From assembly GCA_038874215.1 (NCBI GenBank), contig JAVZCV010000006.1, positions 1 through 46,697 on the forward strand: a stretch of 46,697 nt of DNA, in the 5' to 3' direction. The position numbers and the translations under genes were made by a program. The notes under the pieces were generated by a model that made no database searches, was not told the DNA's origin, and was given only the letters and a program-made list of their open reading frames with translations. Shown one piece after another: positions 12,441 through 42,017 of the stretch. Numbering within the stretch: position 1 is the stretch's first letter; each line of letters begins with the position of its first letter. This DNA comes from Candidatus Micrarchaeia archaeon (GTDB lineage: Archaea; Micrarchaeota; Micrarchaeia; Burarchaeales; JAVZCV01).

Positions 12441-12449
12441 GGTGTTGGG

Positions 12450-12851: not shown

Positions 12852-12855
12852 TATC

Positions 12856-14276: not shown

Positions 14277-14278
14277 AG

Positions 14279-14584: not shown

Positions 14585-14604
14585 TGTGCACTTTCAGTGA
14601 TGCC

Positions 14605-14871: not shown

Positions 14872-14879
14872 GTGTTTTG

Positions 14880-15179: not shown

Positions 15180-15181
15180 GC

Positions 15182-15580: not shown

Positions 15581-16144
15581 ATGACAGGAGTCATATCCGA
15601 AATAAAGGCAAAGGTGCGTGCGCACCAAAAGCAGGTAGTGCCAAGAAAGCCGCGAACGCAGAGAAAAGTACGCTACAACGCACCCATGCATAAGAGAAGA
15701 AAGTTCCTGGGTGTGCATATTTCTGAGGACCTAAGGCGTTCCCTGAACATAAAAACCCGTTCTATCGTAGTTAGAAAAGGGGATAGGGTTAAGATACACT
15801 CGGGCGAGCATAAGGGTAAAACTGGAAAAGTACGCCGCATAGACCTGAAAAGATGCAAGATATTCATTGAAGGCATATCAATAACAAAATCAAAAGGAGC
15901 CGAAAAACTTCTTCCAATAGACCCGTCAAACGTTTCAATAGTTGAGTTTTACACAAAGGACAAGAAGCGAAAATTGCCAGCAGGAGTAGTAAAAGAGGTT
16001 TCAAAAGAAGAAAAAACCGAAAGCGTAGCTACGCCAGAAGCTGCCAAAACTCCACAGGTTTCCAGGGAGACCAAACCGATTCAAGAAAAAGCCTCTCTGG
16101 CAGCTCAAGAACAACCGAAAAATAACGTAAAATCGGAGGGATAA
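15581..16144 (+). CDS. rpl24: 50S ribosomal protein uL24 with N- and C-terminal extensions
   Basis: PRTQRK..YNAPMH, VRKGDRVKI KOW motif, IDPSNV; low-complexity tail. Confidence 0.95.
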   Translation: MTGVISEIKAKVRAHQKQVVPRKPRTQRKVRYNAPMHKRRKFLGVHISEDLRRSLNIKTRSIVVRKGDRVKIHSGEHKGKTGKVRRIDLKRCKIFIEGISITKSKGAEKLLPIDPSNVSIVEFYTKDKKRKLPAGVVKEVSKEEKTESVATPEAAKTPQVSRETKPIQEKASLAAQEQPKNNVKSEG

Positions 16145-16145
16145 G

Positions 16146-16844
16146 ATGGCAAAAAAAGGAGGCTCGTCTCACTTAAAAAGAGTCGCGGTTCCCCGTGCTG
16201 TTCACATAAAACGAAAGACAACAGTATGGAGCGCAAAGCCCGTAGCTGGACCGCACAGAGCGGAGGAGGCAATACCTCTTATAAGCGTTGTTAGAGACAT
16301 ACTGCAACTCGCAGATAATGCGCAGGAGGCTAAAACAATAATCAAAACTGGCAGCATTCTCGTTGACGGTAGGCGCGTGAAGAGCGTGAATTTTCCAGTT
16401 GGTCTTATGGATATAATATCGGTCCCCGCCCTTGACAAATACTACCGCGTAACGATAGATAAAAAAGGCAGGCTAAAGCTTGATGAGATAAAGAAGGATG
16501 ATGCATCATTTAAGCTATGTAGAATTGAAAGGAAAATAACGGGAAAGGGAGGGGTTATTCTGCTCGGCCTACATGATGGCAGGTCACAAATCGCAGACAA
16601 CACATATCATGTCGGAGACACGCTGAAAATTTCAATACCCCAGCAGAAAATAATCGCAAAGTATGCTTTGGAGCCAGGGATGCGCTGTCTCATAACGGGT
16701 GGTAAACACACAGGCGATTTTGCTATCATAGAGGAGGTATTGCGAGGCACGCAAACAAGAGAAAGCGAGACAAAGCTGAAAACAGAGAACTCTACATTTA
16801 CGACCGTTACAAGATATGTTTTTACAGTCGGTGATGCGCTGTAG
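16146..16844 (+). CDS. rps4e: 30S ribosomal protein eS4
   Basis: HLKR, GPH, VDGR..FPVGLMD, ITGGKH.G. Confidence 0.97.
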   Translation: MAKKGGSSHLKRVAVPRAVHIKRKTTVWSAKPVAGPHRAEEAIPLISVVRDILQLADNAQEAKTIIKTGSILVDGRRVKSVNFPVGLMDIISVPALDKYYRVTIDKKGRLKLDEIKKDDASFKLCRIERKITGKGGVILLGLHDGRSQIADNTYHVGDTLKISIPQQKIIAKYALEPGMRCLITGGKHTGDFAIIEEVLRGTQTRESETKLKTENSTFTTVTRYVFTVGDAL

Positions 16845-16852
16845 GTGTTTTC

Positions 16853-17404
16853 ATGGAGCAAGTGCAAACAGAGGTAAAAATAAAGGGAAGAGATGGCAAT
16901 CCGATGCGCGATATACGCGTAGAAAAGCTTACGGTGAATATTGGAGTCGGTGAAGGCGGGAAGAAGCTTGAAAACGCCCTCAAACTTATAGAGAAAATGA
17001 CTGGAAGAAAAGGAGTAATCACAAATGCGCGCGTTAGGAACCCAACTTTTAAAATAAAGAAGGGGGATCCGATAGGCGCGAAAGTGACACTGCGTAAAGG
17101 CGCAGCTGTTGAGTTTTTGAAGAAAGCGTTCCAGGCAGTTGACAACAAAATAAAGAGCTCATCGTTTGATGTTTATGGAAACTTTGCTTTTGGAATCCAT
17201 GAGTACATAGATTTTCCAGGAGTAAAATACGACCCCGAAATAGGAATAATAGGCTTTGATGTTTGCGTCACGCTTTGCAGAAAGGGATTGCGCGTGGCAA
17301 AGAGAAGAGTAGCAAGAAGAGCATTGGATAAAAAGCAGAGAGTGACACGGGAAGAAGCTATCGCATTTGTACAGAATAATTTCAACGTGAGTGTGGTTGA
17401 TTAA
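16853..17404 (+). CDS. rpl5: 50S ribosomal protein uL5
   Basis: NPMRDIRVEKLTVNIGVG, GNFAFGIHEYIDFPG..YDP. Confidence 0.98.
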   Translation: MEQVQTEVKIKGRDGNPMRDIRVEKLTVNIGVGEGGKKLENALKLIEKMTGRKGVITNARVRNPTFKIKKGDPIGAKVTLRKGAAVEFLKKAFQAVDNKIKSSSFDVYGNFAFGIHEYIDFPGVKYDPEIGIIGFDVCVTLCRKGLRVAKRRVARRALDKKQRVTREEAIAFVQNNFNVSVVD

Positions 17405-17584
17405 ATGGCCGAACGAAAAAAGAAAAGTGAGGTAAAGGCACTTCTGCTGAAATTCAGAAAAAGGGGATTGAGAAAATGCCGATTTTGCGGAAATGCGCGC
17501 GGCGTGATCCGCAAGTATCGGCTCTACATATGCAGGAGATGTTTCAGGGAAACTGCCGAGTCCCTCGGGTTTAGGAAATTTTAG
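17405..17584 (+). CDS. rps14: 30S ribosomal protein uS14 (zinc-binding)
   Basis: Missed by the ORF track (59 aa): MAERKKKSEVKALLLKFRKRGLRKCRFCGNARGVIRKYRLYICRRCFRETAESLGFRKF*; CxxC/CxxC; lies between rpl5 and rps8. Confidence 0.96.
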   Translation: MAERKKKSEVKALLLKFRKRGLRKCRFCGNARGVIRKYRLYICRRCFRETAESLGFRKF

Positions 17585-17592
17585 GTGGTTGA

Positions 17593-17982
17593 ATGGCGAA
17601 CGACCCTCTCGCAGATGCGCTGAACGTCATAAAAACGCACGAAATCGCAGGCATAAGCGAATGCACAATAAGGCCTGCATCAAAGCTTATACGCGAAGTG
17701 CTATGCATTTTCCAGAGGTGCAATTACATAGGGGATTTTGAGTTCATAGATGATGGGAAATCCGGCTCCTTCAAAGTTCAACTACTTGGCAATATAAATA
17801 ACTGTGGAGTCATCAAGCCGCGCTTCGCAGTCAAGAAAAACGAATGGGTAAAATGGGAACAGCGTTATATACCAAGCAAGGACTTCGGCCTACTTATCGT
17901 ATCAACACCCCACGGCCTTATGACAAACTCTGAGGCAAAAGAACGCGGTATAGGGGGGAGACTTATCGCCTACATATACTGA
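17593..17982 (+). CDS. rps8: 30S ribosomal protein uS8
   Basis: DPLADAL, INNCGVIKPRF, STPHGLM, GGRLIAYIY. Confidence 0.98.
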   Translation: MANDPLADALNVIKTHEIAGISECTIRPASKLIREVLCIFQRCNYIGDFEFIDDGKSGSFKVQLLGNINNCGVIKPRFAVKKNEWVKWEQRYIPSKDFGLLIVSTPHGLMTNSEAKERGIGGRLIAYIY

Positions 17983-17989
17983 TGGTGGT

Positions 17990-18487
17990 ATGATGATAAC
18001 GATCACGGTGCCTTCTGGTGTTAAAGCCCAAGTCTCAGAAAACGAAATTATAGTAGAAGGACCGAAAGGAAAAGTCTCCAAGTCTTTTAATCCACACCAA
18101 ATTTCAATAGAAAAAAGCGAAGAAGGGCTTGTGCTTAAATCTGAGGATATCTCACTTCTGAATACGTTCAAATCTCATATATATAACATGATAAAAGGAG
18201 TTACTGAGGGACACACAGCAAAAATGCGCGTTGTCTACTCTCACTTCCCAATAAACTTGGAAGTTCGGGATGGTGTTTTGGTAATAAAAAATTTCCTTGG
18301 GGAGAAAGTGCCAAGAAAGGCTAAAATAGTTGGCAACACCAAGCTGGATATAAAAGGTCAGGAGATATTCATTTCGGGGACAAATAAGGAGCATGTCGGC
18401 CAGACAGTCTCAAATATACGCGCGGCAGTTCGCATACCCGGAAAAGACTGCAGGGTTTTCCAAGATGGGATATATTTAGAAGGGTAA
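17990..18487 (+). CDS. rpl6: 50S ribosomal protein uL6
   Basis: VEGPKG, YSHFP, NFLGEK, RVFQDGIY. Confidence 0.97.
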   Translation: MMITITVPSGVKAQVSENEIIVEGPKGKVSKSFNPHQISIEKSEEGLVLKSEDISLLNTFKSHIYNMIKGVTEGHTAKMRVVYSHFPINLEVRDGVLVIKNFLGEKVPRKAKIVGNTKLDIKGQEIFISGTNKEHVGQTVSNIRAAVRIPGKDCRVFQDGIYLEG

Positions 18488-18491
18488 TCAC

Positions 18492-18842
18492 ATGGTTTCA
18501 AAATCGGCAAAAAAGAGAAAACATCCAAAATTTGTTCCGATGAATTTTGGCAGGCGAGGGAGCAAATGTGTTAAGGATAGGTGGAGGAAGCCACGCGGTT
18601 GCGACAACAAAAAAAGGCAGAAGGTTCGTTATGCTGGGAAGATGCCGAATAAAGGCTGGCGCAACCCAAAAAATCTGCGCGGGGTTCATCCATGCGGATA
18701 CAAGGAGGTTCTAATATCAAACATAAAACAATTGGATGGTGTTGGGAAGGAGTGTGCTATTCGCATTTCGGCTACGCTGGGTGAACGAAAGAGATCCGTA
18801 ATACTAAAGAAGGCAAAGGAGTTGGGTCTTAAAGTCTTGTAG
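18492..18842 (+). CDS. rpl32e: 50S ribosomal protein eL32
   Basis: WRKPRG.DNK, RGVHPCGYKEV. Confidence 0.96.
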   Translation: MVSKSAKKRKHPKFVPMNFGRRGSKCVKDRWRKPRGCDNKKRQKVRYAGKMPNKGWRNPKNLRGVHPCGYKEVLISNIKQLDGVGKECAIRISATLGERKRSVILKKAKELGLKVL

Positions 18843-18850
18843 GTGTTTTT

Positions 18851-19318
18851 GTGGGAGTAAAGACAGTTCGCAGGCTTGCTGCCGATATTCTCGGTGTCGG
18901 TGAGAAGAGAATATACATAGATCCCGAGTCAATGGATAGAGTTAAAGAGGCGCTTACACGGGACGATGTCAGGGCACTGATAAAGGAGGGTATAATAACA
19001 AAACGCAAGATACATGGAGTATCGCGAGCACGCGCAAGAAGGCTTCATGAACAGAGAAAAAAAGGAAGGCGAAGGGGACGAGGCAGCATAAGAGGTAAAA
19101 AATACTCAAAGGTGAAGAGGAAGCGAATATGGATGAACAAACTTAGGGCACAAAGAAAATTGCTTAAACTTTTGCGGGAGAAAGGCGCAATAAAGAAAGA
19201 CGTGTACAGACGTCTATATGGTATGGCGAAAGGAGGAGCATTCAAGAGCAAGTCCGCACTCCTCACATATCTTCAAGAACACGGCCTGGCTAAGGAGGCA
19301 TCAATAAAATTGAAGTGA
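18851..19318 (+). CDS. rpl19e: 50S ribosomal protein eL19
   Basis: RRLAADILGVG, TRDDVR, GRRRGRGS..G, AKGG.F. Confidence 0.97.
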   Translation: MGVKTVRRLAADILGVGEKRIYIDPESMDRVKEALTRDDVRALIKEGIITKRKIHGVSRARARRLHEQRKKGRRRGRGSIRGKKYSKVKRKRIWMNKLRAQRKLLKLLREKGAIKKDVYRRLYGMAKGGAFKSKSALLTYLQEHGLAKEASIKLK

Positions 19319-19322
19319 TGGT

Positions 19323-19850
19323 ATGGGCAAATCAACAGGACCTACGTATAGAGTGGCTTTCAAAAGGAGAAGGCTTGGGCTTACCAACTACAAAAAGAGG
19401 TTTGCGCTTCTAAAGTCTGGCAAGCCAAGGTTTGTAGTCAGAAAAAGCCAGCGGAACATCATCACGCAGGTTCTTGACTACGATACAAAAGGCGATCGCG
19501 TTCTGGCATCTGCCCATTCATGTGAGTTGAAGAAGTTTGGTTGGCCTGTGAGGTCCAACACACCAACAGCATACCTAACAGGTCTGCTCGCAGGTTTGAG
19601 GGCGGTAAAAAACAAGGTGATTGATGCGGTGCCCGATATTGGCCTTAACAGAGCAACGCGTGGCTCTGTAGTTTTCTCTGCGATAAAAGGCGCGATTGAT
19701 GGGGGCATGAAAATAAGCATGGACCCCGCAATGGTTTCTGAAAACAGAATAAAAGGGGAGCACATTGCCGGATACTCAAAATATCCAGAAGCGAAAAATA
19801 TTGTGGAGTTATTTGAAAAAGTTAAAGAAGAAATTATACGTTCAGTCTGA
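19323..19850 (+). CDS. rpl18: 50S ribosomal protein uL18
   Basis: FKRRR.G.TNY, PRFVVRKS, NTPTAYLTG. Confidence 0.97.
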   Translation: MGKSTGPTYRVAFKRRRLGLTNYKKRFALLKSGKPRFVVRKSQRNIITQVLDYDTKGDRVLASAHSCELKKFGWPVRSNTPTAYLTGLLAGLRAVKNKVIDAVPDIGLNRATRGSVVFSAIKGAIDGGMKISMDPAMVSENRIKGEHIAGYSKYPEAKNIVELFEKVKEEIIRSV

Positions 19851-19859
19851 GGTGAAGAG

Positions 19860-20585
19860 ATGGCCGAGGAAGAAAGAGAAGAACAATGGGTTCCCAGAAC
19901 AGAAATAGGAAAAAAGGTTGCTGCTAAAGAAATAACATCAATAGATGAGATATTTTTCCTTGGCAAGCCCATCCTTGAGCATCAGATAGTTGACATGCTA
20001 CTCCCAAACCTCAAAGCAGAAACTCTTGAAATGTCTGTAACCCAGCGCATGACTGATTGTGGCAGAAAGTCGCAGTTCAAAGCAATAGTAATCGTCGGAG
20101 ACGGGAACGGTCATGTTGGCATTGGTGTAGGGAAAGCTGAGGAAGCACGGCCTGCAATAATATCTGCAGAAAGAGACGCGAAAAGAAACATAATTTCCGT
20201 ACCGCTTGGCTGTGGTTCTTGGGAGTGCGGGTGTGGCGGGGAGCATTCACTGCCAATTATTGTTAAGGGAAAAAGCGGTAGCGTTGAACTGACTCTTAAG
20301 CCGGCACCAAAGGGGCTTGGAATAGCAGCGAACGAAGTCGTGAAAAAAGTCCTATCAATAGCTGGCGTAAAGGACGCATGGAGCTTTTCAAGAGGCCATA
20401 CCGAAACCGTTTATAACACGGCGATGGCAACATACGATGCCCTGAACAGCCTGAACAGATTAAAGCTAAAGGGTTCTTTTGTAAAAGAAAAAGATGTGAA
20501 GAAAACAGATAGCGAACCCTCACCTACGGAAGTAGCAAAAACAGAAAAGAAACCGAAACAGGATGAGGAAAAAAATGAGAAATAG
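19860..20585 (+). CDS. rps5: 30S ribosomal protein uS5
   Basis: WVPRT.IG, QRMTDCGR, GCGSWECGCG..HS, PAPKGLG. Confidence 0.98.
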   Translation: MAEEEREEQWVPRTEIGKKVAAKEITSIDEIFFLGKPILEHQIVDMLLPNLKAETLEMSVTQRMTDCGRKSQFKAIVIVGDGNGHVGIGVGKAEEARPAIISAERDAKRNIISVPLGCGSWECGCGGEHSLPIIVKGKSGSVELTLKPAPKGLGIAANEVVKKVLSIAGVKDAWSFSRGHTETVYNTAMATYDALNSLNRLKLKGSFVKEKDVKKTDSEPSPTEVAKTEKKPKQDEEKNEK

Positions 20586-20594
20586 GTGTGTTTA

Positions 20595-21014
20595 ATGCCA
20601 AAGCTTATGGCGGTTATACGCGTCAGAGGTTCTTCGGGCATACCGCCCAAGGTAAGGTCTACACTTGCAATGCTCAATCTCTGCGCAGTAAACAACTGTG
20701 CTCTTGTAGATGACAGACCATCATACAAAGGTATGCTAAAACTATGTAAGGACTATATAACGTGGGGCGAGATAAATGGGCAAACCCTCATGAAACTCAT
20801 GGTGAAGAAAGGGGGCATTGACGAGAAAAAGGCAGAGGAGCTTGCAAAAAAGCTTCTGAATCTTGAGATAAAAACAGAGGAGTGCAGTCTGCCTGCTGTA
20901 TTCAGGTTGCACCCGCCGAGGAGAGGATACAAGCATGTAAAAAAGGCATTCCCACATGGCGCTCTCGGATACCGAGGTGAAAAAGTAAATGAACTAATAA
21001 TGAGGATGTTGTAG
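20595..21014 (+). CDS. rpl30: 50S ribosomal protein uL30
   Basis: AVIRVRG, KDYITWGE, FRLHPPRRG, GALGYRG. Confidence 0.97.
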   Translation: MPKLMAVIRVRGSSGIPPKVRSTLAMLNLCAVNNCALVDDRPSYKGMLKLCKDYITWGEINGQTLMKLMVKKGGIDEKKAEELAKKLLNLEIKTEECSLPAVFRLHPPRRGYKHVKKAFPHGALGYRGEKVNELIMRML

Positions 21015-21017
21015 GTG

Positions 21018-21458
21018 ATGTTCTTGGTAAGGCGTCATAAGAAGAAAATAACAAAATACCGCGGAAGCCGAACATGTGGCGGGGGAAATGTGAAGAACAG
21101 AAGAGGGAAGGGAAACAGAGGCGGGAAGGGTTTTGCGGGGTCAAAAAAACACAGGAAATCATTCATAATAACATATATGCCAGGCCATATAGGCAGCAGG
21201 GGTTTCACGCCTCTTACGAGAGAAAAGAATGCGATAAACCTACGTGATATATCTTTAATGGTTGAGAAAGGAATGCTTCAGAAGGACGGCGACACGTATG
21301 TTTTTGAATTCCACGGAAAGATACTCGGCAAGGGAGATATTGATGTGCCATTGAGGGCAAGGGCTATCTCCTTCTCTCAAAGTGCGAAAACCAAGATAGA
21401 GAATGCAGGCGGGGAGGTCCGGTTGCTCAAGCCTATTTCTCCAGATGGTGATACATAG
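21018..21458 (+). CDS. rpl15: 50S ribosomal protein uL15
   Basis: RGSRTCGGG, RGGKG.AG, KILGKG, KIENAGG. Confidence 0.97.
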   Translation: MFLVRRHKKKITKYRGSRTCGGGNVKNRRGKGNRGGKGFAGSKKHRKSFIITYMPGHIGSRGFTPLTREKNAINLRDISLMVEKGMLQKDGDTYVFEFHGKILGKGDIDVPLRARAISFSQSAKTKIENAGGEVRLLKPISPDGDT

Positions 21459-21467
21459 CGTGATTGC

Positions 21468-22952
21468 ATGGGCCTTGAAGTTTTTGAGCCAATAATAAAT
21501 GTTCTCCCCGAGGTGAAGCCTCCTTTGCGGGCACCTCCGCTTCGTGAAAAGTTATTTTGGACTGCAACAGCACTCATACTTTTCTTCATAATGTATCACG
21601 TATATCCGATAGGCGTCATACGGGTTTCTGGGCATTTTGAATTTCTGCAGATGATAATGGCAAGCAAAACAGGGACGATAATAACGGCAGGCATAGGTCC
21701 GATAGTTCTTGCTTCAATATTCCTCCAACTATTTGTAGGCTCTAAAATAATAGAGATGGACCTATCAGATCCGCGCCAGAAAAGGATTTTCACGGGAACG
21801 CAGAAGCTACTCGCAATAGTTCTGTGTTTCATTGAGCCAGCCATGTATGTTATATCGGGCTATGTGCGTGTTTATGGCATGCCCGACCCCTTAACGGGCA
21901 GTGTTTTATACCCCCCTCTTCTTGGCAGCCTGCATTTCACTATGGCAATTGTTATACTCCAAATGGCTCTTGGCTCAATAATACTCCTCTATCTTGATGA
22001 GCTTGTTTCGCGCTATGGAATAGGGAGCGGGATAAGTCTCTTCATAGCCGCAGGCGTTTCTCTTGCAATAGTCCAGGGTACGCTTTCCCTTCTTCTGCCA
22101 GGTGCAATATCCCAGCTGAAAGAAGGGGGTGCAAATGCCGTTGCAAATGCGCTCCTCTCCTTCCTTCCTCTCGTCTTTACTCTTGCAGTATTTGCTGCAT
22201 GCGCATATGCGGAGGGCATGAAAGTTGAAATTCCGCTTGCTTTTGAGAGGGCGCGTGGCGTCGGGGGGCGCTTCCCCATAAAATTCCTTTACGTTTCAAA
22301 CATCCCTGTAATACTCGCATCTGCCCTCATGCTTAACATACAGCTCTGGGGAAGAATGATAGCTAGCACGCAGTTCTATATAGGCGGTGTCAACATAATT
22401 GACTACATAGTGCGCAGTGATGGCAATACTATCCGCGACGGATTTCTCTATTTTATAACACCGTCATTTCCAAACCCGATTATAATTGGTACAACAGATA
22501 GTGGATTCAATTCGGTCAAAGGCTATACAACATACCTCGCCATGCTTTCTGGGACAACACCGTATACGAATATACCTGAATTGTTCCATGTTATAACGTA
22601 CGCAATTACAATGGTTATATTATGCGTTATTTTCGGATGGTTCTGGATAGACACTACGGGCATGGGGCCTAAAGATGTTGCAGAGCAACTAAAGAAATCA
22701 GGTCTCCAGATACCGGGTTTCAGGAGAGACCCGCGCGTTATTGAGAAAGTTCTTGAGCGCTACATACCTGTGATAACTATACTTGGCAGTGCGTTTGTAG
22801 GCATACTTGCGGTTTTCGCAGACCTCACTGGGGCTCTTGGCACGGGAACAGGCGTTCTGCTTACCGTAGGACTTCTTTTCAGAATGTATGAGGACCTAAG
22901 CGCACAGCATCTCTTTGATCTATATCCAGAATTTAAAAACATCCTCTCGTGA
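21468..22952 (+). CDS. secY: Preprotein translocase subunit SecY/Sec61alpha
   Basis: GIGPIV, GIGSGISLFIAAGV, FLYVSNIPVIL, QIPGFRRD, GTGTGVLLTV. Confidence 0.98.
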   Translation: MGLEVFEPIINVLPEVKPPLRAPPLREKLFWTATALILFFIMYHVYPIGVIRVSGHFEFLQMIMASKTGTIITAGIGPIVLASIFLQLFVGSKIIEMDLSDPRQKRIFTGTQKLLAIVLCFIEPAMYVISGYVRVYGMPDPLTGSVLYPPLLGSLHFTMAIVILQMALGSIILLYLDELVSRYGIGSGISLFIAAGVSLAIVQGTLSLLLPGAISQLKEGGANAVANALLSFLPLVFTLAVFAACAYAEGMKVEIPLAFERARGVGGRFPIKFLYVSNIPVILASALMLNIQLWGRMIASTQFYIGGVNIIDYIVRSDGNTIRDGFLYFITPSFPNPIIIGTTDSGFNSVKGYTTYLAMLSGTTPYTNIPELFHVITYAITMVILCVIFGWFWIDTTGMGPKDVAEQLKKSGLQIPGFRRDPRVIEKVLERYIPVITILGSAFVGILAVFADLTGALGTGTGVLLTVGLLFRMYEDLSAQHLFDLYPEFKNILS

Positions 22953-22961
22953 GGTGGTGCG

Positions 22962-23513
22962 GTGATAATCGTTCTAGGGACACCCGGGGCAGGAAAAACA
23001 ACAATACTAAATGAGGCTAAGAAACGTCTTTCTTCTGATTGGGTTTTCATAAACTACGGGGACCTGATGTTTAAACTTGCAAGTGAAGAGAATTTCGTTA
23101 AGCACCGCGACGAGATGCGTTTACTTCCATTAAGCGTGCAGAAAAAACTTCAGGCAAAAGCAGCAGAAGAATTGCAAAAAAGCGGGGAAAAAACAATACT
23201 GGATACTCACTGCTCAATAAAAACACCCAACGGCTATCTCCCTGGCCTTCCTTTTGAGCTTCTCTCAAAAATGCGTGTTGAGAACCTTATTCTCATAAGC
23301 GCCCCGATAGAGGATATAATGAGGAGGAGGGTTGCAGACACCACAAGGTCACGGGATAAAGAGAAGATAGAGGAGCTTGAGGAGCATATGGCAATAAACA
23401 AGTTTCTCCTCTCAACATATTCTGTAATAACGGGCGCCCCATTCCTAATAATTGAGAACCGCGATGGCTCTCTCAAAGAGGCTGTTGAAAGATTCCTATC
23501 CGTAGTTAAATAG
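22962..23513 (+). CDS. adkA: Archaeal adenylate kinase
   Basis: GTPGAGKTT, NYGD.M, RDEMR.L, DTH, GYLPGLP. Confidence 0.95.
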   Translation: MIIVLGTPGAGKTTILNEAKKRLSSDWVFINYGDLMFKLASEENFVKHRDEMRLLPLSVQKKLQAKAAEELQKSGEKTILDTHCSIKTPNGYLPGLPFELLSKMRVENLILISAPIEDIMRRRVADTTRSRDKEKIEELEEHMAINKFLLSTYSVITGAPFLIIENRDGSLKEAVERFLSVVK

Positions 23514-23523
23514 CGTGGTTCAC

Positions 23524-24291
23524 ATGATTGACAGCGCCCTCGCCCCATATTTCATTATCTCCTTCGCTATTCTCTACTCCTTAATTTCCTCGCTCATAAC
23601 ATTCAGGTTTGGGGGTAGAAAACGGCTAAAGGAAATACAGGAGGAGATAAACCAGCTTAAAAAAGAAATGGAGGAGGCAATAAAAAGCAACGACAAGCTG
23701 AGGAGAAAAAAGGCTGAGAAGAAACAGCACGAGCAGCTTCCCAGGCTTACCTCTGAGATGATGAAAATCTCAATGACCTCAATGCTCCTGATAGTACCCT
23801 TCTTCTTTGCTTTCCTATGGGTCATGAATTCAATGGTGCCAGGCTCAAGCGATGATATACGGCTCATACCAACCAACTCTTCCGCGTGTGCGGGCGTTGA
23901 TGTTGCATGCGCTACATACCAGCTAAAAGATACCGATACTGAAGGACTTTGGGTTGCTCTTGCAAAATCGCCAGAAAGCGAAAATGCAACAACATTCTAT
24001 GTGGGGAACACAAGCACGCTAATGCCAGAACCGAGGTACAATGAGCATGGAAATCTGATAATAAAGGCAGACAAAAATCTCTATTCAAAAGGAGAAAACA
24101 TAACGATTTTGGTCCAAGGCAACAACACAAACAATACACAGATATTCCTTGACAGGGGAACTCGCTTTTACTTTGTGCTTCCGTTTTCAATACCTTTTGC
24201 TGGCAACACCCTTGATGCATCTGGTCTTTTCATATCATGCGTTCTCATAACAAGCATAATTTTATCTCAGGTGATGCAGAAGTTCATTTAG
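23524..24291 (+). CDS. DUF106 (EMC3/TMCO1, Oxa1-superfamily) membrane protein with extracytoplasmic insertion
   Basis: TM1-coiled coil-TM2 ... LPF.IP-TM3 architecture; conserved position after secY-adk. Confidence 0.8.
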   Translation: MIDSALAPYFIISFAILYSLISSLITFRFGGRKRLKEIQEEINQLKKEMEEAIKSNDKLRRKKAEKKQHEQLPRLTSEMMKISMTSMLLIVPFFFAFLWVMNSMVPGSSDDIRLIPTNSSACAGVDVACATYQLKDTDTEGLWVALAKSPESENATTFYVGNTSTLMPEPRYNEHGNLIIKADKNLYSKGENITILVQGNNTNNTQIFLDRGTRFYFVLPFSIPFAGNTLDASGLFISCVLITSIILSQVMQKFI

Positions 24292-24299
24292 GTGCGGCT

Positions 24300-24821
24300 A
24301 TGAAGGCAAAACCCATAATATGCATATCCGGCTTCTCGGCTAGCGGCAAAACAACAGTCGGGAAAAAAGTTGCGAAGCTACTCGGTTTAAAGCACATCCA
24401 CTACTCGTTCAAGCATATCGCAAAGAAAAAAGGAGTTTCTCTCATGCATATCCAAAAAATTGCAGAGAAAGATAAGAAGCTTGACCTTGATTTTGATGCG
24501 AGAGTCGTTGAGTCTGCGAAAGAAGGCGGCTGCGTAGTAACCACATGGCTCTCTCCATGGATGGTTAAGAATGCAGACCTTCGCGTATGGCTTGAGGCAA
24601 CAGAAGAGACCCGCGCGCGGAGGCTTGCTGGCAGGGAAAAAACATCCTTCAAAAGCGCACTCAGACACATAAGAGAGAGGGATGCGAGCAACATACGGAG
24701 ATACATACGATACTATGGGATAGATATACGAGACCATTCAAACTTTGATTTGATCATAAATTCGGAGCGCTTCTCACCCGATACGATAGCAAGGATAATA
24801 AAAGCATCAATGGAGGTTTGA
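24300..24821 (+). CDS. cmk: Cytidylate kinase (archaeal)
   Basis: ISGFSASGKTT, ADLRVWL.A..E.RA.R, RY..YYGID, DLIINS; ATG at 24300. Confidence 0.93.
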   Translation: MKAKPIICISGFSASGKTTVGKKVAKLLGLKHIHYSFKHIAKKKGVSLMHIQKIAEKDKKLDLDFDARVVESAKEGGCVVTTWLSPWMVKNADLRVWLEATEETRARRLAGREKTSFKSALRHIRERDASNIRRYIRYYGIDIRDHSNFDLIINSERFSPDTIARIIKASMEV

Positions 24822-24825
24822 TAAC

Positions 24826-25053
24826 ATGTTTGAGAAAGGGACTGTTTGCATAAAGCTCTGCGGAAGGGACGCAGGCTCGCGCTGTGTTGTAGTTGGCAAA
24901 TCGGGGAAATTTGTTGAAGTAGCGTGCCCAGAGCGTAAAAAAATACGGCGATGCAATCCAGCCCATCTAAAAATAACTGGTGAAAAGATAAATGCCGAGG
25001 AGTTCCTGCAATCCATGAAAAAAGAAAAAGGCAAGGGTGTCTCCAATTCCTGA
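24826..25053 (+). CDS. rpl14e: 50S ribosomal protein eL14
   Basis: GTVCIKLCGRDAG..CVVV, RRCNPAHL. Confidence 0.93.
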   Translation: MFEKGTVCIKLCGRDAGSRCVVVGKSGKFVEVACPERKKIRRCNPAHLKITGEKINAEEFLQSMKKEKGKGVSNS

Positions 25054-26038
25054 GAAAAATCCATCCGCAAATTTTCTTGAAATACCATTTCTCATACGGG
25101 ATGCAAAAACAGACTACTCGTACGGTAAGCCGCCTTCAGAGAGGACGATAGATGAATTACTTGATTCCTCTGTTGTTGTAGTTGATAAGCCCTGCGGACC
25201 GTCAAGCCATGAAGTGACAAAATGGGTGGGGAAGATACTCGGAGTGAAAAAAACGGGGCACGGCGGCACTCTTGACCCAAATGTTTCGGGTGTTCTCGTG
25301 GTAGGCTTGAACAGGGCGACGAAGGCTATGGTATTCTTTTCAAAAAGCGAAAAAGAGTATGTCGGAATAATGCGATTCCACAGAGAAATAAGCGAAGAAA
25401 GCGTGAGGCTTCTCTTCCAAAAATTCACGGGAGAGATAGACCAGCTGCCTCCTGTAAAATCGGCAGTCAAAAGGAGAGTGCGCACGAGAAAGATAAATGC
25501 ACTTGAACTCGTTGAAATGCATGGAAGAGACGTTTTATTCCGCGTGGAGTGCGAAGCTGGCACGTATATCAGAAAGCTTTGCCATGACATAGGTAAAGAA
25601 GTAGGAGGCGCGCACATGGTGGAATTGAGAAGGACGAGGGCAGGCAGTTTTTCAGAGAAAAACTGCGTAACACTCCATACGCTTTCTGATGCATACTGGC
25701 TCTGGAAAGAAAAAGGGGACGAAAAGATGCTGAGAAAATTTCTGATACCTCTTGAAAGCGCGCTCAACCTCCCAAAGCTTTATATAAACGATGGAGCGGT
25801 TGATGCGATATGCAGCGGCGCACAGCTTGCCGCGCCTGGCGTTGTAGGTGGTGATAGATTTAAAAAAAATAGCATCATAGCAATCACCACGCTCAAGGGC
25901 GAGCTCGTCGCCGTAGCACTCGCGCTTGAAGATATAGAAACAATAGCGAAGATGGAGAAAGGATATGTCGCAAAGACCCTCCGCGTTTTCATGAAGGAGG
26001 GCACATACCTACGCGTGTGGGGTAGGAGAAGAGAATAA
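25037..26038 (+). CDS. cbf5: H/ACA RNA-guided pseudouridine synthase Cbf5 (TruB family)
   Basis: DKPCGPSSHEV, GHGGTLDP (catalytic Asp), QLPPVKSAVKR, EAGTYIR, C-terminal PUA domain. Confidence 0.96.
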   Translation: MSPIPEKNPSANFLEIPFLIRDAKTDYSYGKPPSERTIDELLDSSVVVVDKPCGPSSHEVTKWVGKILGVKKTGHGGTLDPNVSGVLVVGLNRATKAMVFFSKSEKEYVGIMRFHREISEESVRLLFQKFTGEIDQLPPVKSAVKRRVRTRKINALELVEMHGRDVLFRVECEAGTYIRKLCHDIGKEVGGAHMVELRRTRAGSFSEKNCVTLHTLSDAYWLWKEKGDEKMLRKFLIPLESALNLPKLYINDGAVDAICSGAQLAAPGVVGGDRFKKNSIIAITTLKGELVAVALALEDIETIAKMEKGYVAKTLRVFMKEGTYLRVWGRRRE

Positions 26039-26067
26039 AAATTTACTCATCCAAAAGTATAGCCACT

Positions 26068-26323
26068 GCCGGGGTGGCAGAACCTGGTAATGCGTACGGC
26101 TGGAGACCGTATGGCTCTTTTGAGCCTTATGGGTTCCCGCCCCTTTTTTCTTCGCAAAAAGGGGAAGAAAGGCGGTGCCGTTTTCAGGGCATATGTCTCT
26201 CTCCAGAGAGATGCACGATACATTTATGCAGCACTGGACAAGATGAAATCGTGCTGCTTTTACTAATCACCGCCTCTTTCCTATGAAGAAAGAAAGGGCG
26301 GCCTAGAAATCCCATCCCCGGCG
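26068..26323 (+). tRNA. tRNA-Ser(GGA) with a 170-nt intron at position 56/57
   Basis: Acceptor GCCGGGG/CCCCGGC-G; anticodon arm TACGG-CTGGAGA-CCGTA; long variable arm GGCTC-TTTT-GAGCC. T arm ATGGG-TTC|AAAT-CCCAT is restored by removing 26137-26306. Confidence 0.93.
26137..26306 (+). other. tRNA-Ser T-loop intron (BHB type)
   Basis: Central helix GGGT/GCCT, bulges TC|C and AG|A, long closing stem. Confidence 0.85.
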
Positions 26324-26337
26324 TTTGAGGTGTTCAG

Positions 26338-26877
26338 TTGGAAAAGGGAAAAACTGTTGGGAAAGAGTCACCATCGGAGATACGTGGAATCGTAAGAATA
26401 GCGGGAAAGGACATTAAAGGAACGATGAGGCTTACCCGTGCGTTATATCAAATAAAGGGAATCGGAATTAGATTAAGCAGGATACTGGCAGATGTTGCGA
26501 TACGGGAGATGCGTCTCCCAGAAGACGTGATGCTCGGGCAACTCACAGAGGAGCAGAGCGATAGGCTTGAAGAGATTTGCATGCACCCAGAAAGATATGT
26601 TCCGCCTTATCTGCTAAACAGGCAAAAAGACATTGAAACAGGAGAAAGCATCCATTTAATAGGGAGTGACCTAACATTCAGAGTTAAGCAGGATATAGAG
26701 AAAGAGAAGGAGATTCTCTCATGGCGTGGTTTCAGGCACACGTATGGCAAGAAAGTGCGCGGTCAGAGAACGAGAACAACAGGAAGGAAAGGAATGACCG
26801 TTGGAGTTATAAGGCGTGCAGTAGCTCCTAAACCAGGCGCTGCTGAAAAGAAAGAAGAGAAAAAGGAAAAGAAATAG
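26338..26877 (+). CDS. rps13: 30S ribosomal protein uS13
   Basis: IVRIAGKDI, IKGIG, LNRQKD.ETG, SWRGFRH..GKKVRGQRTRTTGR; TTG start after GAGGTG. Confidence 0.97.
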   Translation: MEKGKTVGKESPSEIRGIVRIAGKDIKGTMRLTRALYQIKGIGIRLSRILADVAIREMRLPEDVMLGQLTEEQSDRLEEICMHPERYVPPYLLNRQKDIETGESIHLIGSDLTFRVKQDIEKEKEILSWRGFRHTYGKKVRGQRTRTTGRKGMTVGVIRRAVAPKPGAAEKKEEKKEKK

Positions 26878-26886
26878 CGTGGTTTT

Positions 26887-27399
26887 ATGGGGGACCCAAG
26901 AAGGCTGAGAAAAAAATACGAGACTCCGCGAAAAACATGGGATGCTGCGAGGATTGAGGAGGACCGCAACCTCCTCATAGAATATGGTCTTAGGAGTATG
27001 CACGAACTCTGGACGATGGAGTCCGAGCTAAAAAAGCTAAGGCGCTCTGCAAGAAGGCTTCTCGCTTTGGGAGCAAGCGGTCAGAAGGAAGCGCAGCAAA
27101 TTCTTGATAAAGCAACTCGGCTTGGCCTTCTCAAAAGTGGCGCCTCCCTTGACGATTTGCTTTCACTTTCTGTTCGCGACGTTCTTGAAAGAAGGCTGCA
27201 AACACTCGTTTTCAAGAAAGGACTTGCGCTTTCAATGAAGCAGAGCAGACAGCTCATAACACACGGCTTCATATCCGTAGCAGGTAGAAAGGTAACATCG
27301 CCCAGCTATCTGGTTGGAACTGAAGAAGAAAACCAAATTTCCTACTATAAAGCTTTTGATTTTGGTGGTTCAATTGGCGGAGGAAAGCAGGCAGGATAA
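26887..27399 (+). CDS. rps4: 30S ribosomal protein uS4
   Basis: MGDP....KKYETP, EYGL, LERRLQT.V, RQLITHG. Confidence 0.97.
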
Positions 27400-27817
27400 A
27401 AAGGCTCCCGAAGCCGAGAGAGAGACGAGACTTGGCGATAAGATCGGGATAGTGCACGTCTACTCTTCAAAAAACAACACGATAATTACTCTTACAGACC
27501 CCAGCTGTGCTGAAACGATAGCGAAGGCGAGTGGTGGAATGATAGTAAAAGCCGATAGGGAAAAAGGCTCCCCATACGCTGCTATGCAGGCAGCATTCAT
27601 GGTTGCAGAGAAGGCAAAAGAAAGGGGCATAGGCAGAATACACATAAAGATAAGGGCACCCGGAGGGCACAAATCAAAAACCCCAGGACCAGGTGCGCAG
27701 GCTGTTGTTAGAGCCCTTGCCCGATCTGGTTTAAGAATAGGAAAAATAGAGGACGTGACACCAATCCCGACGGATACCACCAAGAGACCGGGCGGGAAGA
27801 GAGGCAGGCGTGTGTAG
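27374..27817 (+). CDS. rps11: 30S ribosomal protein uS11
   Basis: [33 protein letters not shown]...[10 protein letters not shown]; in-frame TTG at 27374 after GGTGG. Confidence 0.96.
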
Positions 27818-27826
27818 GGTGTTATA

Positions 27827-28405
27827 ATGAAACTTGAAATAACAAAGCGTGATGAGAACGAGTGCGATTTCGTCCTTAAGGGCGTTAGCACATCATTCGC
27901 AAATGCGATAAGGCGTAGCGTTATGGGAAAGGTTCCCATTCTTGCGATAGATGTGGTTACATTCTACGAAAACAGCTCTGCCCTCTTTGATGAATTTATC
28001 GCAAACAGGCTCGGCCTGCTCCCAATAATCACTCCTGAAGACTACACGGAAAAAGACGAAGTGGTTTTCATGCTTGATAAGGAAGGCCCATGCACAGTTT
28101 ATTCGGGCGATTTGAAGAGCACGGACAAAAAAGTCCGCTGTGCATACGATAACATACCGATAATAAAACTCCTTGAAGGCCAGAGGCTGAGGCTTGAGGC
28201 GAAGGCGAGGCTTGGGTTAGGCAGAAAGCATGCGAAGTTCCAGCCCGCCCTCATCTCCTACTCATACGATGAGAAGAATGAAACGTATCAGTTCCATGCA
28301 GAGTCATTTGGCAACATGCCTATAGAAAAGGTCATCATGCGTGCTGTTGATATTCTTGAGAAAAAGTGCGATTCTTTTATTAAGGAGGTGGAGGAAATCG
28401 CGTAG
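27827..28405 (+). CDS. rpoD: RNA polymerase subunit D (Rpo3), short form without the Fe-S domain
   Basis: FANAIRR, ENSSALFDEFIANRLGLLP, GRKHAKFQP; 192 aa. Confidence 0.95.
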   Translation: MKLEITKRDENECDFVLKGVSTSFANAIRRSVMGKVPILAIDVVTFYENSSALFDEFIANRLGLLPIITPEDYTEKDEVVFMLDKEGPCTVYSGDLKSTDKKVRCAYDNIPIIKLLEGQRLRLEAKARLGLGRKHAKFQPALISYSYDEKNETYQFHAESFGNMPIEKVIMRAVDILEKKCDSFIKEVEEIA

Positions 28406-28413
28406 CTACGCAT

Positions 28414-28578
28414 GCGGGGGTGGCAGAGCCTGGTCAATAACTTCCCTTTGGGATACCAAGGCAAAGTTGGCCAAATGTGCAGGACTGAGGCTCCTGTGCC
28501 TTTAGTGGCTGCGTGGGTTCTCGCCCCTTCCAAGGAAAAAAAGAAGATGGTGGCGGCCCAAAAATCCCACCCCCCGCA
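28414..28578 (+). tRNA. tRNA-Leu(GAG) with two introns (21/22 and 56/57)
   Basis: Acceptor GCGGGGG/CCCCCGC-A; anticodon arm CAGGA-CTGAGGC-TCCTG. Introns 28438-28474 (helix GGTC/GGCC, bulges AA|T and AA|A) and 28521-28561 (GGGT/GCCC, TC|T and AA|A). Confidence 0.93.
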
Positions 28579-28595
28579 TTTCTCTCGGTGGTTCA

Positions 28596-28943
28596 ATGAT
28601 AAAAGGACCTGAAAACGAACATAAGCGCACCCTCATCATAACCCTGCGCAGGAGCAAAAGCCCTTTTTGGAGAGCAGTGGCTCGGCATCTGAGCAAGCCT
28701 GCAAGAAAATCCGTTGAGGTAAACCTGCTAAAAATAAACAAACTGACAAAAATAAACGACACTGTAATCGTGCCTGGGAAGGTACTCGGCTATGGCGCAT
28801 TATCGCACCCAATAACCGTGGGCGCATTTTCGTACTCATCGCAGGCGAAGGCGAAAATAGAAATGGCAAATGGGAAAGCTTTTAGCATAGAGAAGATATA
28901 CGGGGAAAACCCATCTGGAAAAGGGTTGATGTTGCTTACGTAA
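28596..28943 (+). CDS. rpl18e: 50S ribosomal protein eL18
   Basis: FWRAVA..L, VNL.KI, VPGKVLGYG, NPSG. Confidence 0.96.
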   Translation: MIKGPENEHKRTLIITLRRSKSPFWRAVARHLSKPARKSVEVNLLKINKLTKINDTVIVPGKVLGYGALSHPITVGAFSYSSQAKAKIEMANGKAFSIEKIYGENPSGKGLMLLT

Positions 28944-28954
28944 TGGTGTGTGGC

Positions 28955-29398
28955 ATGGAAAGCGAAAAGTTTGACATAGTCATAGATTGCTCCGATTGCG
29001 TTGTAGGAAGGATCGGCGCACACGTTGCAAAAAAACTTTTACTGGGATATAAAGTCGCACTTCTAAATGCCGAGAGGGCCCTATTCAGCGGCAGTTTAAG
29101 AAACCTGAAAGAGAAATACCAGACGAGAAGGAGTTTGAAAAACAAGGCGAATCCAGAATTCTCACCAAAATGGCCGAGAAGACCTGACCTGCTCGTTAAG
29201 AGGATAATAAGGGGCATGCTTCCTTGGGGAAGCGCGAGGGGAAGGGATGCCTACCACAACCTGCGCGTTTATATTGGAAATCCCAAAAACATGAAGCCCA
29301 ACAAGGAGTTCGGTAAAGTGGGGGATAAGACTAAATATGTTTCCGTTGAAAAACTCTGCTTGCAGCTGGGCTACGCCCCAAAAGCAAAAGGTGGATAG
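28955..29398 (+). CDS. rpl13: 50S ribosomal protein uL13
   Basis: GRI...VAKKLL, NAE, PRRPD..VKR.IRGMLP; start could alternatively be 28943. Confidence 0.96.
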   Translation: MESEKFDIVIDCSDCVVGRIGAHVAKKLLLGYKVALLNAERALFSGSLRNLKEKYQTRRSLKNKANPEFSPKWPRRPDLLVKRIIRGMLPWGSARGRDAYHNLRVYIGNPKNMKPNKEFGKVGDKTKYVSVEKLCLQLGYAPKAKGG

Positions 29399-29833
29399 AT
29401 GGCGCAGAAAAAAGAAGAAAAAAAGCCAAAGAAAGAGGTAATCGTTTTCGCACGGGGAAAGAGAAAAGAAAGCGTAGCTCGTGTTAGGCTGAAGAAAGGC
29501 ACCGGGAAAATACGGTTCAACGGTTTTGATGTTAATACGCTTGAAAATAACTACATGCGCCAGATTCTTTTAGAGCCCCTTGAACTGGCGGGCGATGTTG
29601 CAGGAGGAGTTGATATAAGCATAAACGTAAGCGGCGGTGGACCGATGGGCCAGATAGAGGCTGCAAGGCTTGCAATAGCAAAGGCCGTAGTTGAGTATAC
29701 GGGAGACCAATCCATAAAAGAGAGGATGCTTGAGCAGGATAGGCACCTGCTTGTTGAGGATAGCAGAAGGGTTGAGCCGAAGAAATACCGTGGCAGGAAG
29801 GCGAGGGCGAGGTTCCAAAAATCATACAGGTGA
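29399..29833 (+). CDS. rps9: 30S ribosomal protein uS9
   Basis: [33 protein letters not shown]. Confidence 0.97.
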
Positions 29834-30035: not shown

Positions 30036-30195
30036 GGGGCCGTAGGGTAGCCTGGTCATCCTTCCGGCTGGGTTCTCTTTTGGAAAGGTAACCAAAAGAA
30101 AACCTCCGGTCTGGGGATGGCCGCCAGAATGCCGGCGACCCGAGCAACCCTCCCTTCTCAGGAAGGGTGCGGGAATTCAAATCTCGGCGGCCCCA
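30036..30195 (+). tRNA. tRNA-Pro(GGG) with three introns (about 32/33, 37/38, 53/54)
   Basis: Acceptor GGGGCCG/CGGCCCC-A; anticodon stem CCGGC/GCCGG; T arm CCGAG-TTCAAAT-CTCGG. Introns 30070-30111, 30117-30129 and 30145-30175, each with a 4-bp central helix and NN|N bulges. Confidence 0.9.
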
Positions 30196-30212
30196 TTTTA
30201 TTCGGTGAGAAG

Positions 30213-39441: not shown

Positions 39442-39553
39442 AGCCCCGTGGTGTAGTGGCCAAGCATGGCGGGCTTTGGTCTGCCCTCCTTCTCAAAAGC
39501 TATTTGGGGCAGGAAGAAACCCGCAGACAGAGGTTCAAATCCTCTCGGGGCTA
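39442..39553 (+). tRNA. tRNA-Gln(TTG) with a canonical 37/38 intron (39480-39518)
   Basis: A1-U72 acceptor AGCCCCG/CGGGGCT-A; GCGGG-CTTTGG|A-CCCGC; BHB CTTT/GAAG with bulges GG|T and AA|A; T arm AGAGG-TTCAAAT-CCTCT; upstream TTTAAG box. Confidence 0.95.
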
Positions 39554-41296: not shown

Positions 41297-41617
41297 ATGC
41301 TCTCCGAACTTGAAAAGGAATTCAAAAAGGTTCTCGCAAGAATACTGAAATATAAGAAAAGAGAAGATAGAAGGGATGCGCTTATTGAGCTGAGCGCCGC
41401 ACTGCAAAAATATGTAAGGCATACCGAGGAAGAAATCCTTAAATGCGAAAGGAAAAAGAGCGATGTTGATTATGTGGAGATATCGGACGAGAGGAGCGCT
41501 TCATTGGCCGTGCGGATAGACGGCCTGCCTATAAAGAAACTTCCCCTCATGAGAAAGAAGTTTAAAGCGTTTGCGAAATCGCTTCAAAACTCTAAACATC
41601 AAGAAGAACGCGAATAA
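41297..41617 (+). CDS. Hypothetical protein
   Basis: Compact charged ORF divergent from proS with an AT-rich promoter region. No recognisable motif. Confidence 0.55.
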   Translation: MLSELEKEFKKVLARILKYKKREDRRDALIELSAALQKYVRHTEEEILKCERKKSDVDYVEISDERSASLAVRIDGLPIKKLPLMRKKFKAFAKSLQNSKHQEERE

Positions 41618-42017
41618 TCCACCCATCTTTACCCTCTTTCACCTCAAGCTCGTGGAACGTAACTGCCTTAACGTCTCCTAGTGCATTCTCGGGTTTTTTT
41701 CTCTCCCCCCACGCTTCTCCCTCCACAAAATATTCGTTCTCCTTCCTGTCAAGCTTCTTCACCTTAAAACTTTTGAAGAAAAGGCCTCTCGCATCACTCT
41801 CGCTTAGAAGCTCGCTTAGTGTAAAAACCACCAACTCGCCCAAATCACTTGCTTTGACACGAATGCTAATCCTCTCTTCTTCCGTAAGTTTGCCAACATC
41901 AGCCATAGCAGAGAAAAGAGCAAGCCCCGCGTTTTCAATGCTCTCAGAGAGTGTCTTGCCATAAGCCTCAAAGAGCATATCTGCTTTATGTTCAAGGAAC
42001 CTGAATTTTTTACGCAT
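41592..42017 (-). CDS. Archease (RtcB tRNA-ligase cofactor)
   Basis: FLEHKAD..FEAYG, DVKAVTFH, VLLDV C-terminus. Confidence 0.94.
   Translation of the reverse strand: MRKKFRFLEHKADMLFEAYGKTLSESIENAGLALFSAMADVGKLTEEERISIRVKASDLGELVVFTLSELLSESDARGLFFKSFKVKKLDRKENEYFVEGEAWGERKKPENALGDVKAVTFHELEVKEGKDGWIIRVLLDV

Follow-up and report, generated by a model that had tools for sequence, protein, structure and literature searches.

A tRNA-Ser(GGA) gene with a 170-nucleotide T-loop intron in a Micrarchaeota-like archaeon, probably an expanded form within a conserved family of 56/57 introns

The locus and its interrupted tRNA-Ser(GGA) gene

We analyzed a window of 46,697 nucleotides (nt) from a Candidatus Micrarchaeia archaeon (contig JAVZCV010000006.1), the whole stretch of DNA considered here, and focused on a tRNA-Ser(GGA) gene that is interrupted in its T-loop by an intron of 170 nt. 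The locus is a typical archaeal ribosomal-protein cluster with the gene order SecY, adenylate kinase, membrane protein, cytidylate kinase, Cbf5, tRNA-Ser, S13, S4, S11, RpoD, L18e, L13, S9 and RpoN. The coordinates of all features discussed are collected in Table 1.

Standard tools overlook the tRNA-Ser gene. ARAGORN reported no tRNA genes on the unspliced window, and an Rfam search of the window (gathering and E-value thresholds) gave a sole tRNA match at 39442-39553 and did not call tRNA-Ser. A local scan of 26060-26330 at E <= 10 detected a partial, sub-threshold tRNA match at 26068-26142, whose 21.7 bits fall short of the gathering score of 29. When the exons were joined by a script, ARAGORN recognized an 86-nt tRNA-Ser(GGA) with all arms intact, including 7 of 7 acceptor pairs, a long variable arm, the T-loop TTCAAAT and G73. 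As read from the sequence, this T-loop is obtained with a splice at 56/57 alone, and a shift by +1 or -1 alters the loop. An earlier note, made from the letters of the window, had proposed such a gene, its 170-nt intron placed at 56/57 and its intron ends paired in a long interrupted stem, and the perfect cloverleaf obtained by splicing in silico bears this out.

The window contains four tRNA genes and seven introns, and all four genes are interrupted. In addition to the 170-nt intron of tRNA-Ser, the introns measure about 37 and 41 nt in tRNA-Leu(GAG), 43, 13 and 31 nt in tRNA-Pro(GGG), and 39 nt in tRNA-Gln(UUG), so the statement that the tRNA-Ser intron is 4 to 13 times longer than the six others was accurate (170 versus 13-43 nt). 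The segment is a real, unusually long archaeal T-loop intron, predicted to be protein-spliced, and nothing that we found shows a role for it beyond being excised.

Table 1. Features of the tRNA-Ser(GGA) gene, its intron and other elements of the window
Feature	Position	Strand	Evidence or remark
tRNA-Ser(GGA) 5' exon, tRNA positions 1-56	26068..26136	+	69 nt; ARAGORN on the spliced product, pairing table, partial Rfam tRNA match
Intron at 56/57, relaxed bulge-helix-bulge type	26137..26306	+	170 nt
Hairpin module 1 (5' arm)	26137..26177	+	CCGCC, pyrimidine run, purine run, GGCGG; local fold -16.5 kcal/mol
Core, lineage-specific	26178..26268	+	91 nt, between the two modules
Hairpin module 2 (3' arm) and intron 3' end	26269..26306	+	Alignment to the L002 and window tRNA-Leu introns; MAFFT
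tRNA-Ser(GGA) 3' exon, tRNA positions 57-73, discriminator G	26307..26323	+	17 nt; ARAGORN
A/T-rich stretch AATAAAAATTTACT, candidate TATA box/transcription factor B recognition element (BRE) promoter	26034..26047	+	21-34 nt upstream of tRNA-Ser; putative
Shine-Dalgarno-like GAGGTG of S13	26327..26332	+	Begins 4 nt past the tRNA-Ser 3' end
tRNA-Leu(GAG)	28414..28578	+	Between RpoD and L18e; found by inspecting the gap, detected by no tool
tRNA-Pro(GGG)	30036..30196	+	Spliced product called tRNA-Pro(ggg) by ARAGORN
tRNA-Gln(UUG)	39442..39553	+	39-nt canonical intron at 39480-39518
Archease gene, RtcB tRNA ligase cofactor	41592..42017	-	Pfam PF01951, E = 3e-35

Splice motif

At the exon-intron boundaries, exon residues G51 G52 G53 U54 (26131-26134) are able to pair with the intron sequence GCCU (26301-26304), forming a central helix of 4 base pairs (bp). 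This helix is flanked by the 3-nt bulges UC/C and AG/A, where the slash marks the splice site; both sites follow the second bulge base, and the spacing is 3-4-3. U55 and C56 of the 5' exon lie in the 5' bulge and A57 in the 3' bulge. The intron helix h' comprises 5 G+C-rich base pairs (26138-26142 with 26296-26300) and abuts the 5' bulge. The exon-side helix h of the strict hBHBh' arrangement, in which a helix stands at either end of the bulge-helix-bulge unit, is absent (a single pair followed by mismatches), whereas h' is present; thus the motif is relaxed rather than strict, and a broad-specificity enzyme would be needed to process it.

One defining property of an endonuclease-dependent intron, a canonical tRNA after removal, was found here and in the orthologues of two related genomes described below. 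The intron can adopt the features of this class with the exception of the strict flanking helix, and the action of the endonuclease EndA and the ligase RtcB on it is predicted.

The closest known system is found in ARMAN-2 (Candidatus Micrarchaeum acidiphilum): its epsilon2 endonuclease cleaves relaxed motifs, those of T-loop introns among them, as described in the available parts of PMC3239211 and PMC12397907. Both ARMAN-2, as portrayed there, and the organism studied here are DPANN, Micrarchaeota-like archaea with heavily interrupted tRNA genes and T-loop introns bounded by relaxed motifs, and the tRNA-Pro(GGG) of the window has a 53/54 intron, as does ARMAN-2 according to the Figure 1C legend there. 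In contrast, the tested ARMAN-2 substrates given in the accessible text carry introns of 25 and 13 nt at T-loop sites 53/54 and 59/60, compared with 170 nt at 56/57 in our case.

Fold of the intron

The minimum free energy (MFE) structure of the intron is a rod in which 26137-26177 pairs with 26268-26301 through 32 interrupted arm pairs, four of them G-U, with C26268 closing the innermost pair with G26177. This agrees with the interrupted stem of about 30 bp that had been described between the intron ends. The fold of the whole intron has an energy of -67.5 kcal/mol (z-score -5.37; none of 200 shuffled sequences folded equally well), and the rod has an equilibrium weight of 0.95. Both arms contribute to the splice motif: bases 26138-26142 of the 5' arm are the 5' strand of h' next to the 5' bulge, and the 3' arm supplies the opposite strand of h' (26296-26300), the intron strand of the central helix (26301-26304, GCCT in the DNA) and the 3' bulge bases A26305 and G26306.

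Each arm is also able to fold locally, as the earlier note had noticed, at -16.5 kcal/mol for the 5' arm and -12.6 kcal/mol for the 3' arm. Between the arms, the core contains a hairpin (26195-26212) and two competing helices, and both of these previously described features are real: the helix GCACGAT/ATCGTGC (26213-26219 with 26248-26254) is used by the MFE structure, and GCAGCAC/GTGCTGC (26228-26234 with 26251-26257) by the centroid. The core folded by itself (26176-26269) is of marginal structure, with a z-score of -1.90 and 9 of 200 shuffled sequences as good, and therefore the exceptional structure is the rod and not the core.

A family of 56/57 introns in related genomes

Eleven related loci were recovered with the S13 protein as query. 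The order Cmk-Cbf5-tRNA-Ser-S13, with tRNA-Ser(GGA) directly upstream of S13, occurs in only two of them, a Candidatus Micrarchaeota metagenome-assembled genome (L001) and the uncultured archaeon LFW-35 (L002). These two are also nearest in sequence, providing the best match for nine and one of ten neighbouring proteins, respectively, at identities of 41-80% for the best matches and 37-80% across both loci.

The tRNA-Ser(GGA) orthologues of both genomes have an intron at 56/57 too, of 116 nt in L001 and 34 nt in L002, and each has an extra intron in the anticodon loop (33 and 132 nt, respectively); after splicing, all were called tRNA-Ser(GGA). The mature tRNA is identical to its orthologues at 70-71 of 86 positions, and the intron interiors do not align. 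Paralogous 56/57 introns are found in tRNA-Leu(GAG) of the window (41 nt) and of L001 (61 nt), while the tRNA-Leu of L002 is uninterrupted. The Ser and Leu tRNAs share the identical T-arm GGGTTCAAATCCC.

In all five introns the helix between G51-U54 and GCCY has 4 of 4 pairs, and the bulges conform to UC/N and AR/A. The length of the intron helix varies from 3 to 8 bp. Its first pair is C-G, C-G, A-U, G-C and G-C across the five members, and its second and third pairs also alternate between G-C and C-G. Such compensatory changes would be expected of a structure under selection, though five sequences are few. The pair tables were made by a script, since a MAFFT alignment of the five introns with their flanks left the intron-helix columns out of register. 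Taken together, these introns appear to constitute one 56/57 family, 34 to 170 nt in length, that spans the Ser and Leu tRNAs of Micrarchaeota-like archaea.

Intron families common to different tRNA genes have reportedly been observed in Thermoproteales and interpreted there as intron transposition. The present family resembles those in comprising related introns at the same position of different tRNA genes (Ser and Leu). It differs in belonging to another phylum and in having been retained in genomes with no more than about 50-60% identity of their ribosomal proteins, and because of this retention much of the family seems to stem from inheritance and not from recent movement.

Long introns are typical of the lineage and recur in the relatives: among 16 introns delimited in ten tRNA genes of the three genomes, five have at least 91 nt. 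An intron above 100 nt occurs in the tRNA-Ser(GGA) gene of every one of the three genomes, and its position varies. When the five long introns were aligned locally with one another, significant similarity was seen for the T-loop introns of L001 tRNA-Ser and tRNA-Pro alone (none of 300 shuffles as good), and runs of purines and pyrimidines account for it. The window intron gave no significant local alignment with the other long introns, 13 to 112 of 300 shuffles being as good.

Several long introns of the relatives were observed along the way. The anticodon-loop intron of L002 tRNA-Ser (132 nt, 5582-5713) folds with a z-score of -4.25, while the T-loop intron of the same gene is short, and L002 tRNA-Pro carries a 91-nt T-loop intron (10136-10226). 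The tRNA-Pro(GGG) gene of L001 (11350-11629) has a T-loop intron of 171 nt that is rich in CCCTTTTCTTTC and GAAAGAAAGGG runs and whose placement is ambiguous between 56/57 and 60/61. The L001 tRNA-Leu(GAG) gene (8251-8449) contains, besides its 61-nt 56/57 family intron at 8372-8432, a putative 52-nt insert in the anticodon region.

Probable modular origin of the long intron

The hairpin module of the family is laid out as a G+C clamp, a pyrimidine run, a loop, a purine run and a second G+C clamp. Module 2 of the tRNA-Ser intron aligns to the whole 34-nt L002 intron and likewise to the tRNA-Leu intron of the window, and in neither comparison did any of 1000 shuffled sequences align as well. 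Module 1 matches module 2 and the tRNA-Leu intron, with 3 and 4 of 1000 shuffles as good, respectively. MAFFT by itself also sets the short introns under module 2. Judging from these alignments, the 170-nt intron is composed of two copies of the ancestral hairpin module with a core of about 91 nt between them.

The structure of the intron follows from this composition. A hairpin module that is repeated in direct orientation is also complementary to its own copy, and hence the 32-bp rod and the self-folding of each arm are both outcomes of having two direct copies of one module.

For the core, no relative was detected. Its similarity to the L001 intron is at chance level (318 of 1000 shuffles as good), and a BLASTN search with a word size of 7 found no second copy of the intron, the core or the arms in the window or in the 11 loci; the sole recurring word of the intron was AAAGAAAGGGCG, which occurs in the tRNA-Pro intron of L001.

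Proposed mechanism and its weighing

We propose that this Micrarchaeota-like (DPANN) archaeon has here a working tRNA-Ser(GGA) gene that is spliced in cis and that carries an expanded member of the conserved 56/57 intron family, a reading to which we assign a probability of roughly 0.7. The tRNA gene would be co-transcribed with the downstream S13 operon. In the precursor, the computed folding predicts that the intron ends zip into the 32-bp rod and that the intron GCCU pairs with G51-U54 of the exon between the two 3-nt bulges. A broad-specificity splicing endonuclease of the kind known from ARMAN-2 would then cut both bulges, and RtcB together with archease would ligate the exons and circularize the intron. 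Excised archaeal introns are known to be circularized by RtcB ligation. The intron probably grew by duplication of an ancestral hairpin module of about 35-40 nt and by the gain of the lineage-specific core. The rod would serve to keep the splice sites together, and the core would require no function of its own.

Several observations weigh against this proposal. The central helix contains two G-U pairs here and one in each of the four other family members, and the exon-side helix is missing in all five. With the tRNA body fixed, RNAfold places the bulge-helix-bulge conformer at -104.5 kcal/mol, 2.7 above the optimum of -107.2 kcal/mol, with a weight of about 0.012; the optimum with the fixed cloverleaf is an intact T-stem extended by UUC paired with GAA. 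The earlier description of the bulge-helix-bulge geometry as correct thus stands for the 3-4-3 spacing and the strong intron helix, and has to be given up for the exon-side helix, with the two G-U pairs and the energy as further reservations. No splicing endonuclease gene is present in the window, and no RtcB gene was seen there. Archaeal transcription might be impeded by a run of six T within the intron (26144-26149). L001 and L002 are distant (about 50-60% protein identity) and thus uninformative on the conservation of the core among close kin, and the proposal leaves the origin of the core unexplained.

Alternative readings of the intron

The alternatives that survive best assign a function to the core on its 32-bp rod, either as part of a persistent 170-nt circle with its own job or as an internal promoter, which would make the gene a nascent adjacent split tRNA and would drive the S13 operon. 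As a whole, we regard such a functional core as unlikely.

In the first version, for which the prospects are poor, the excised rod would persist as a stable circular RNA whose core acts as a guide, decoy or regulator. The very stable fold of the intron would suit such an RNA, as would the presentation of the core hairpins on the end of a long stem and the retention of the core although the four other family members do with 34-116 nt. It is also established that archaeal introns circularize and that the tRNA-Trp intron bears a C/D guide, the C/D introns being mentioned in PMC3218864. The tRNA-Ser intron is like the tRNA-Trp introns in exceeding 100 nt and in having an excised form that could persist. 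It is unlike them in lacking a C/D box pair and an Rfam match, and in residing in another tRNA at another position. No D box of the form CUGA and only two C-like heptamers, each with one mismatch to the C box RUGAUGA, are present on the + strand, and no Rfam family matched the core or the intron, the scan of 26060-26330 at E <= 10 giving three matches at chance level. Furthermore, the core is only marginally structured when folded alone, cannot be aligned with the L001 intron above chance and has no second copy in the window or the 11 loci. The suggestion of the earlier note that the intron embeds a non-coding RNA or a functional circle therefore finds little support: the Rfam search was null, the C/D pair is absent and the orthologous introns hold no homologue of the core. 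Circularization itself is expected, and a function for the circle is not indicated.

In the second version, which we consider improbable, the 170 nt are the gap between adjacent, separately transcribed tRNA halves that are trans-spliced after pairing of their arms, or contain an internal promoter that also feeds the S13 operon. A precedent is tRNA-Asp(GUC) of A. pernix, where what had been annotated as a 121-nt intron turned out to reflect two neighbouring transcripts, with a BRE/TATA promoter inside and a 14-bp stem beside the splice motif, according to the accessible part of PMC3218864. Our intron shares with that case, as far as it is described there, an intervening sequence of more than 100 nt without a C/D RNA and a long stem adjoining the splice motif. 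In contrast, the A. pernix gene is reported in the same text to be split at 37/38 within a strict motif and to have a strong promoter verified by Northern blot and reverse transcription PCR, whereas here the site is 56/57, the motif is relaxed, the TTTAT is at chance level and cis-spliced orthologues have introns down to 34 nt.

The signals invoked for two transcripts are the TTTT at 26181-26184, after module 1, and the TTTAT at 26223-26227, about 25 nt before a plausible start. Both are indeed present in the core, as had been pointed out, but at densities of 8.5/kb for TTTT and 1.63/kb for TTTAT on this strand both are expected by chance in 170 nt; the TTTAT is also a poorer A/T box than those upstream of tRNA genes. 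The predicted duplex between the halves is 19.1 kcal/mol better than their separate folds. This cofolding reproduces the complementarity of trailer and leader that characterizes split tRNAs, and a cis intron would show it just as well. The leaders of known split tRNAs are unstructured, whereas both arms here self-fold, and the orthologous and paralogous introns that measure 34-61 nt can only be spliced in cis. An internal promoter would be favoured by the fact that there is no room for a promoter of S13 after the tRNA.

A conformational switch, in which local folding of the arms destroys the splice motif and thereby gates the maturation of tRNA-Ser, appears very improbable. Each arm is able to fold alone, two core helices compete at nearly equal energy, and a kinetic trap is conceivable, as module 1 is transcribed first and the direct path from the two-hairpin state to the rod has an estimated barrier of about 18 kcal/mol. 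However, at 37 C the rod is favoured over the two-hairpin state by 10.8 kcal/mol, the latter having a weight of about 4e-8 versus 0.95, and the deficit of the two-hairpin state remains at about 10.7-11.3 kcal/mol from 25 to 80 C. The self-complementarity of the arms is an automatic outcome of the module duplication, no relative has the same two-state design, and neither the Rfam scan of 26060-26330 nor the box search found a ligand-binding or protein-binding motif.

That the gene is a disrupted pseudogene, an assembly artefact or the target of a mobile element, with a second intact tRNA-Ser(GGA) doing the work, is scarcely credible: standard finders miss the gene and the intron has inverted-repeat ends, but the exons are intact and conserved in the orthologues, the splice-site geometry is kept in all five family members, the gene occupies its ancestral syntenic place between Cbf5 and S13, and no other copy of the insert is present in the 46.7 kb and the 11 loci.

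Other candidates were tried and rejected. A miniature inverted-repeat mobile element had no dispersed copies in the window, a small part of the genome, or in the 11 loci. A self-splicing group I or group II intron gave no covariance-model match above chance level in 26060-26330 (E <= 10), and 170 nt is too short for it. A C/D box guide intron was discarded as no pair of C and D boxes occurs on the + strand and Rfam gave no match.

Significance of the intron family

As of 2011, archaeal tRNA introns ranged from 11 to 129 nt with a median of 15 nt, as given in the available part of PMC3218864. The introns of 170 nt in tRNA-Ser of the window, 171 nt in L001 tRNA-Pro and 132 nt in L002 tRNA-Ser lie above that maximum; more recent length statistics were not found in the literature searched, which included PMC4090602, PMC4033280, PMC6125680, PMC8450103 and 10.64898/2026.10.13.758758, nor was a description of long T-loop introns of such kind in this lineage. 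Three of the four tRNA genes of the window (Ser, Leu and Pro) are invisible to both ARAGORN and the Rfam tRNA model. Incomplete tRNA sets in DPANN genomes point to unrecognised disrupted genes, as stated in the accessible text of PMC5829648, and the genes described here are concrete, checkable examples of why these sets seem incomplete, useful for tRNA annotation. The five 56/57 introns with their conserved relaxed motif also form a natural length series from 34 to 170 nt, in which one can ask what a broad-specificity endonuclease needs and how introns grow.

Operon context and other genes of the window

The S13 gene has a TTG start at 26338, 14 nt past tRNA-Ser. GGTG or GAGGTG motifs precede many internal operon genes of the region (starts within 12400-29400) by 5-9 nt; motifs of the GGTG type stand before S19, S3, L14, L24, L5, S8, L19e, S5, Adk, RpoD, L18e and S9. 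Because the GAGGTG of S13 sits just past the tRNA in the same manner as at internal operon genes, the S13-S4-S11-RpoD transcript probably runs through the tRNA-Ser gene and yields a joint tRNA-mRNA precursor. The candidate promoter AATAAAAATTTACT upstream of tRNA-Ser is similar to the A/T boxes that precede tRNA-Gln and other first genes.

Among the other tRNA genes, tRNA-Leu(GAG) has its 41-nt intron at 56/57 (28521-28561) and an intron of about 37 nt in the D-loop with ambiguous boundaries. The introns of tRNA-Pro(GGG) are located near 26/27 (43 nt), near 38/39 (13 nt) and at 53/54 (31 nt). The S2 open reading frame, listed from an ATG at 30117, overlaps this gene, and the true S2 start is probably further downstream. 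A scan for T-loop motifs found the Pro and Gln genes, and a scan for acceptor stems was swamped by false positives. The intron option of ARAGORN misplaces the tRNA-Gln intron and produces a "tRNA-Stop(tta)" that could be mistaken for a suppressor tRNA.

With the archease gene, the window encodes part of the enzymatic pathway for splicing. A prolyl-tRNA synthetase gene (39843-41237, - strand) lies, like archease, near tRNA-Gln. Genes for Trm5/TYW2 (5208-6227) and for the p30 subunit of RNase P (44962-45525) are also present, and the region 37104-39390 on the - strand holds three tandem genes for KaiC-like ATPases of about 245-255 amino acids each (PF06745, E ~1e-55 each).

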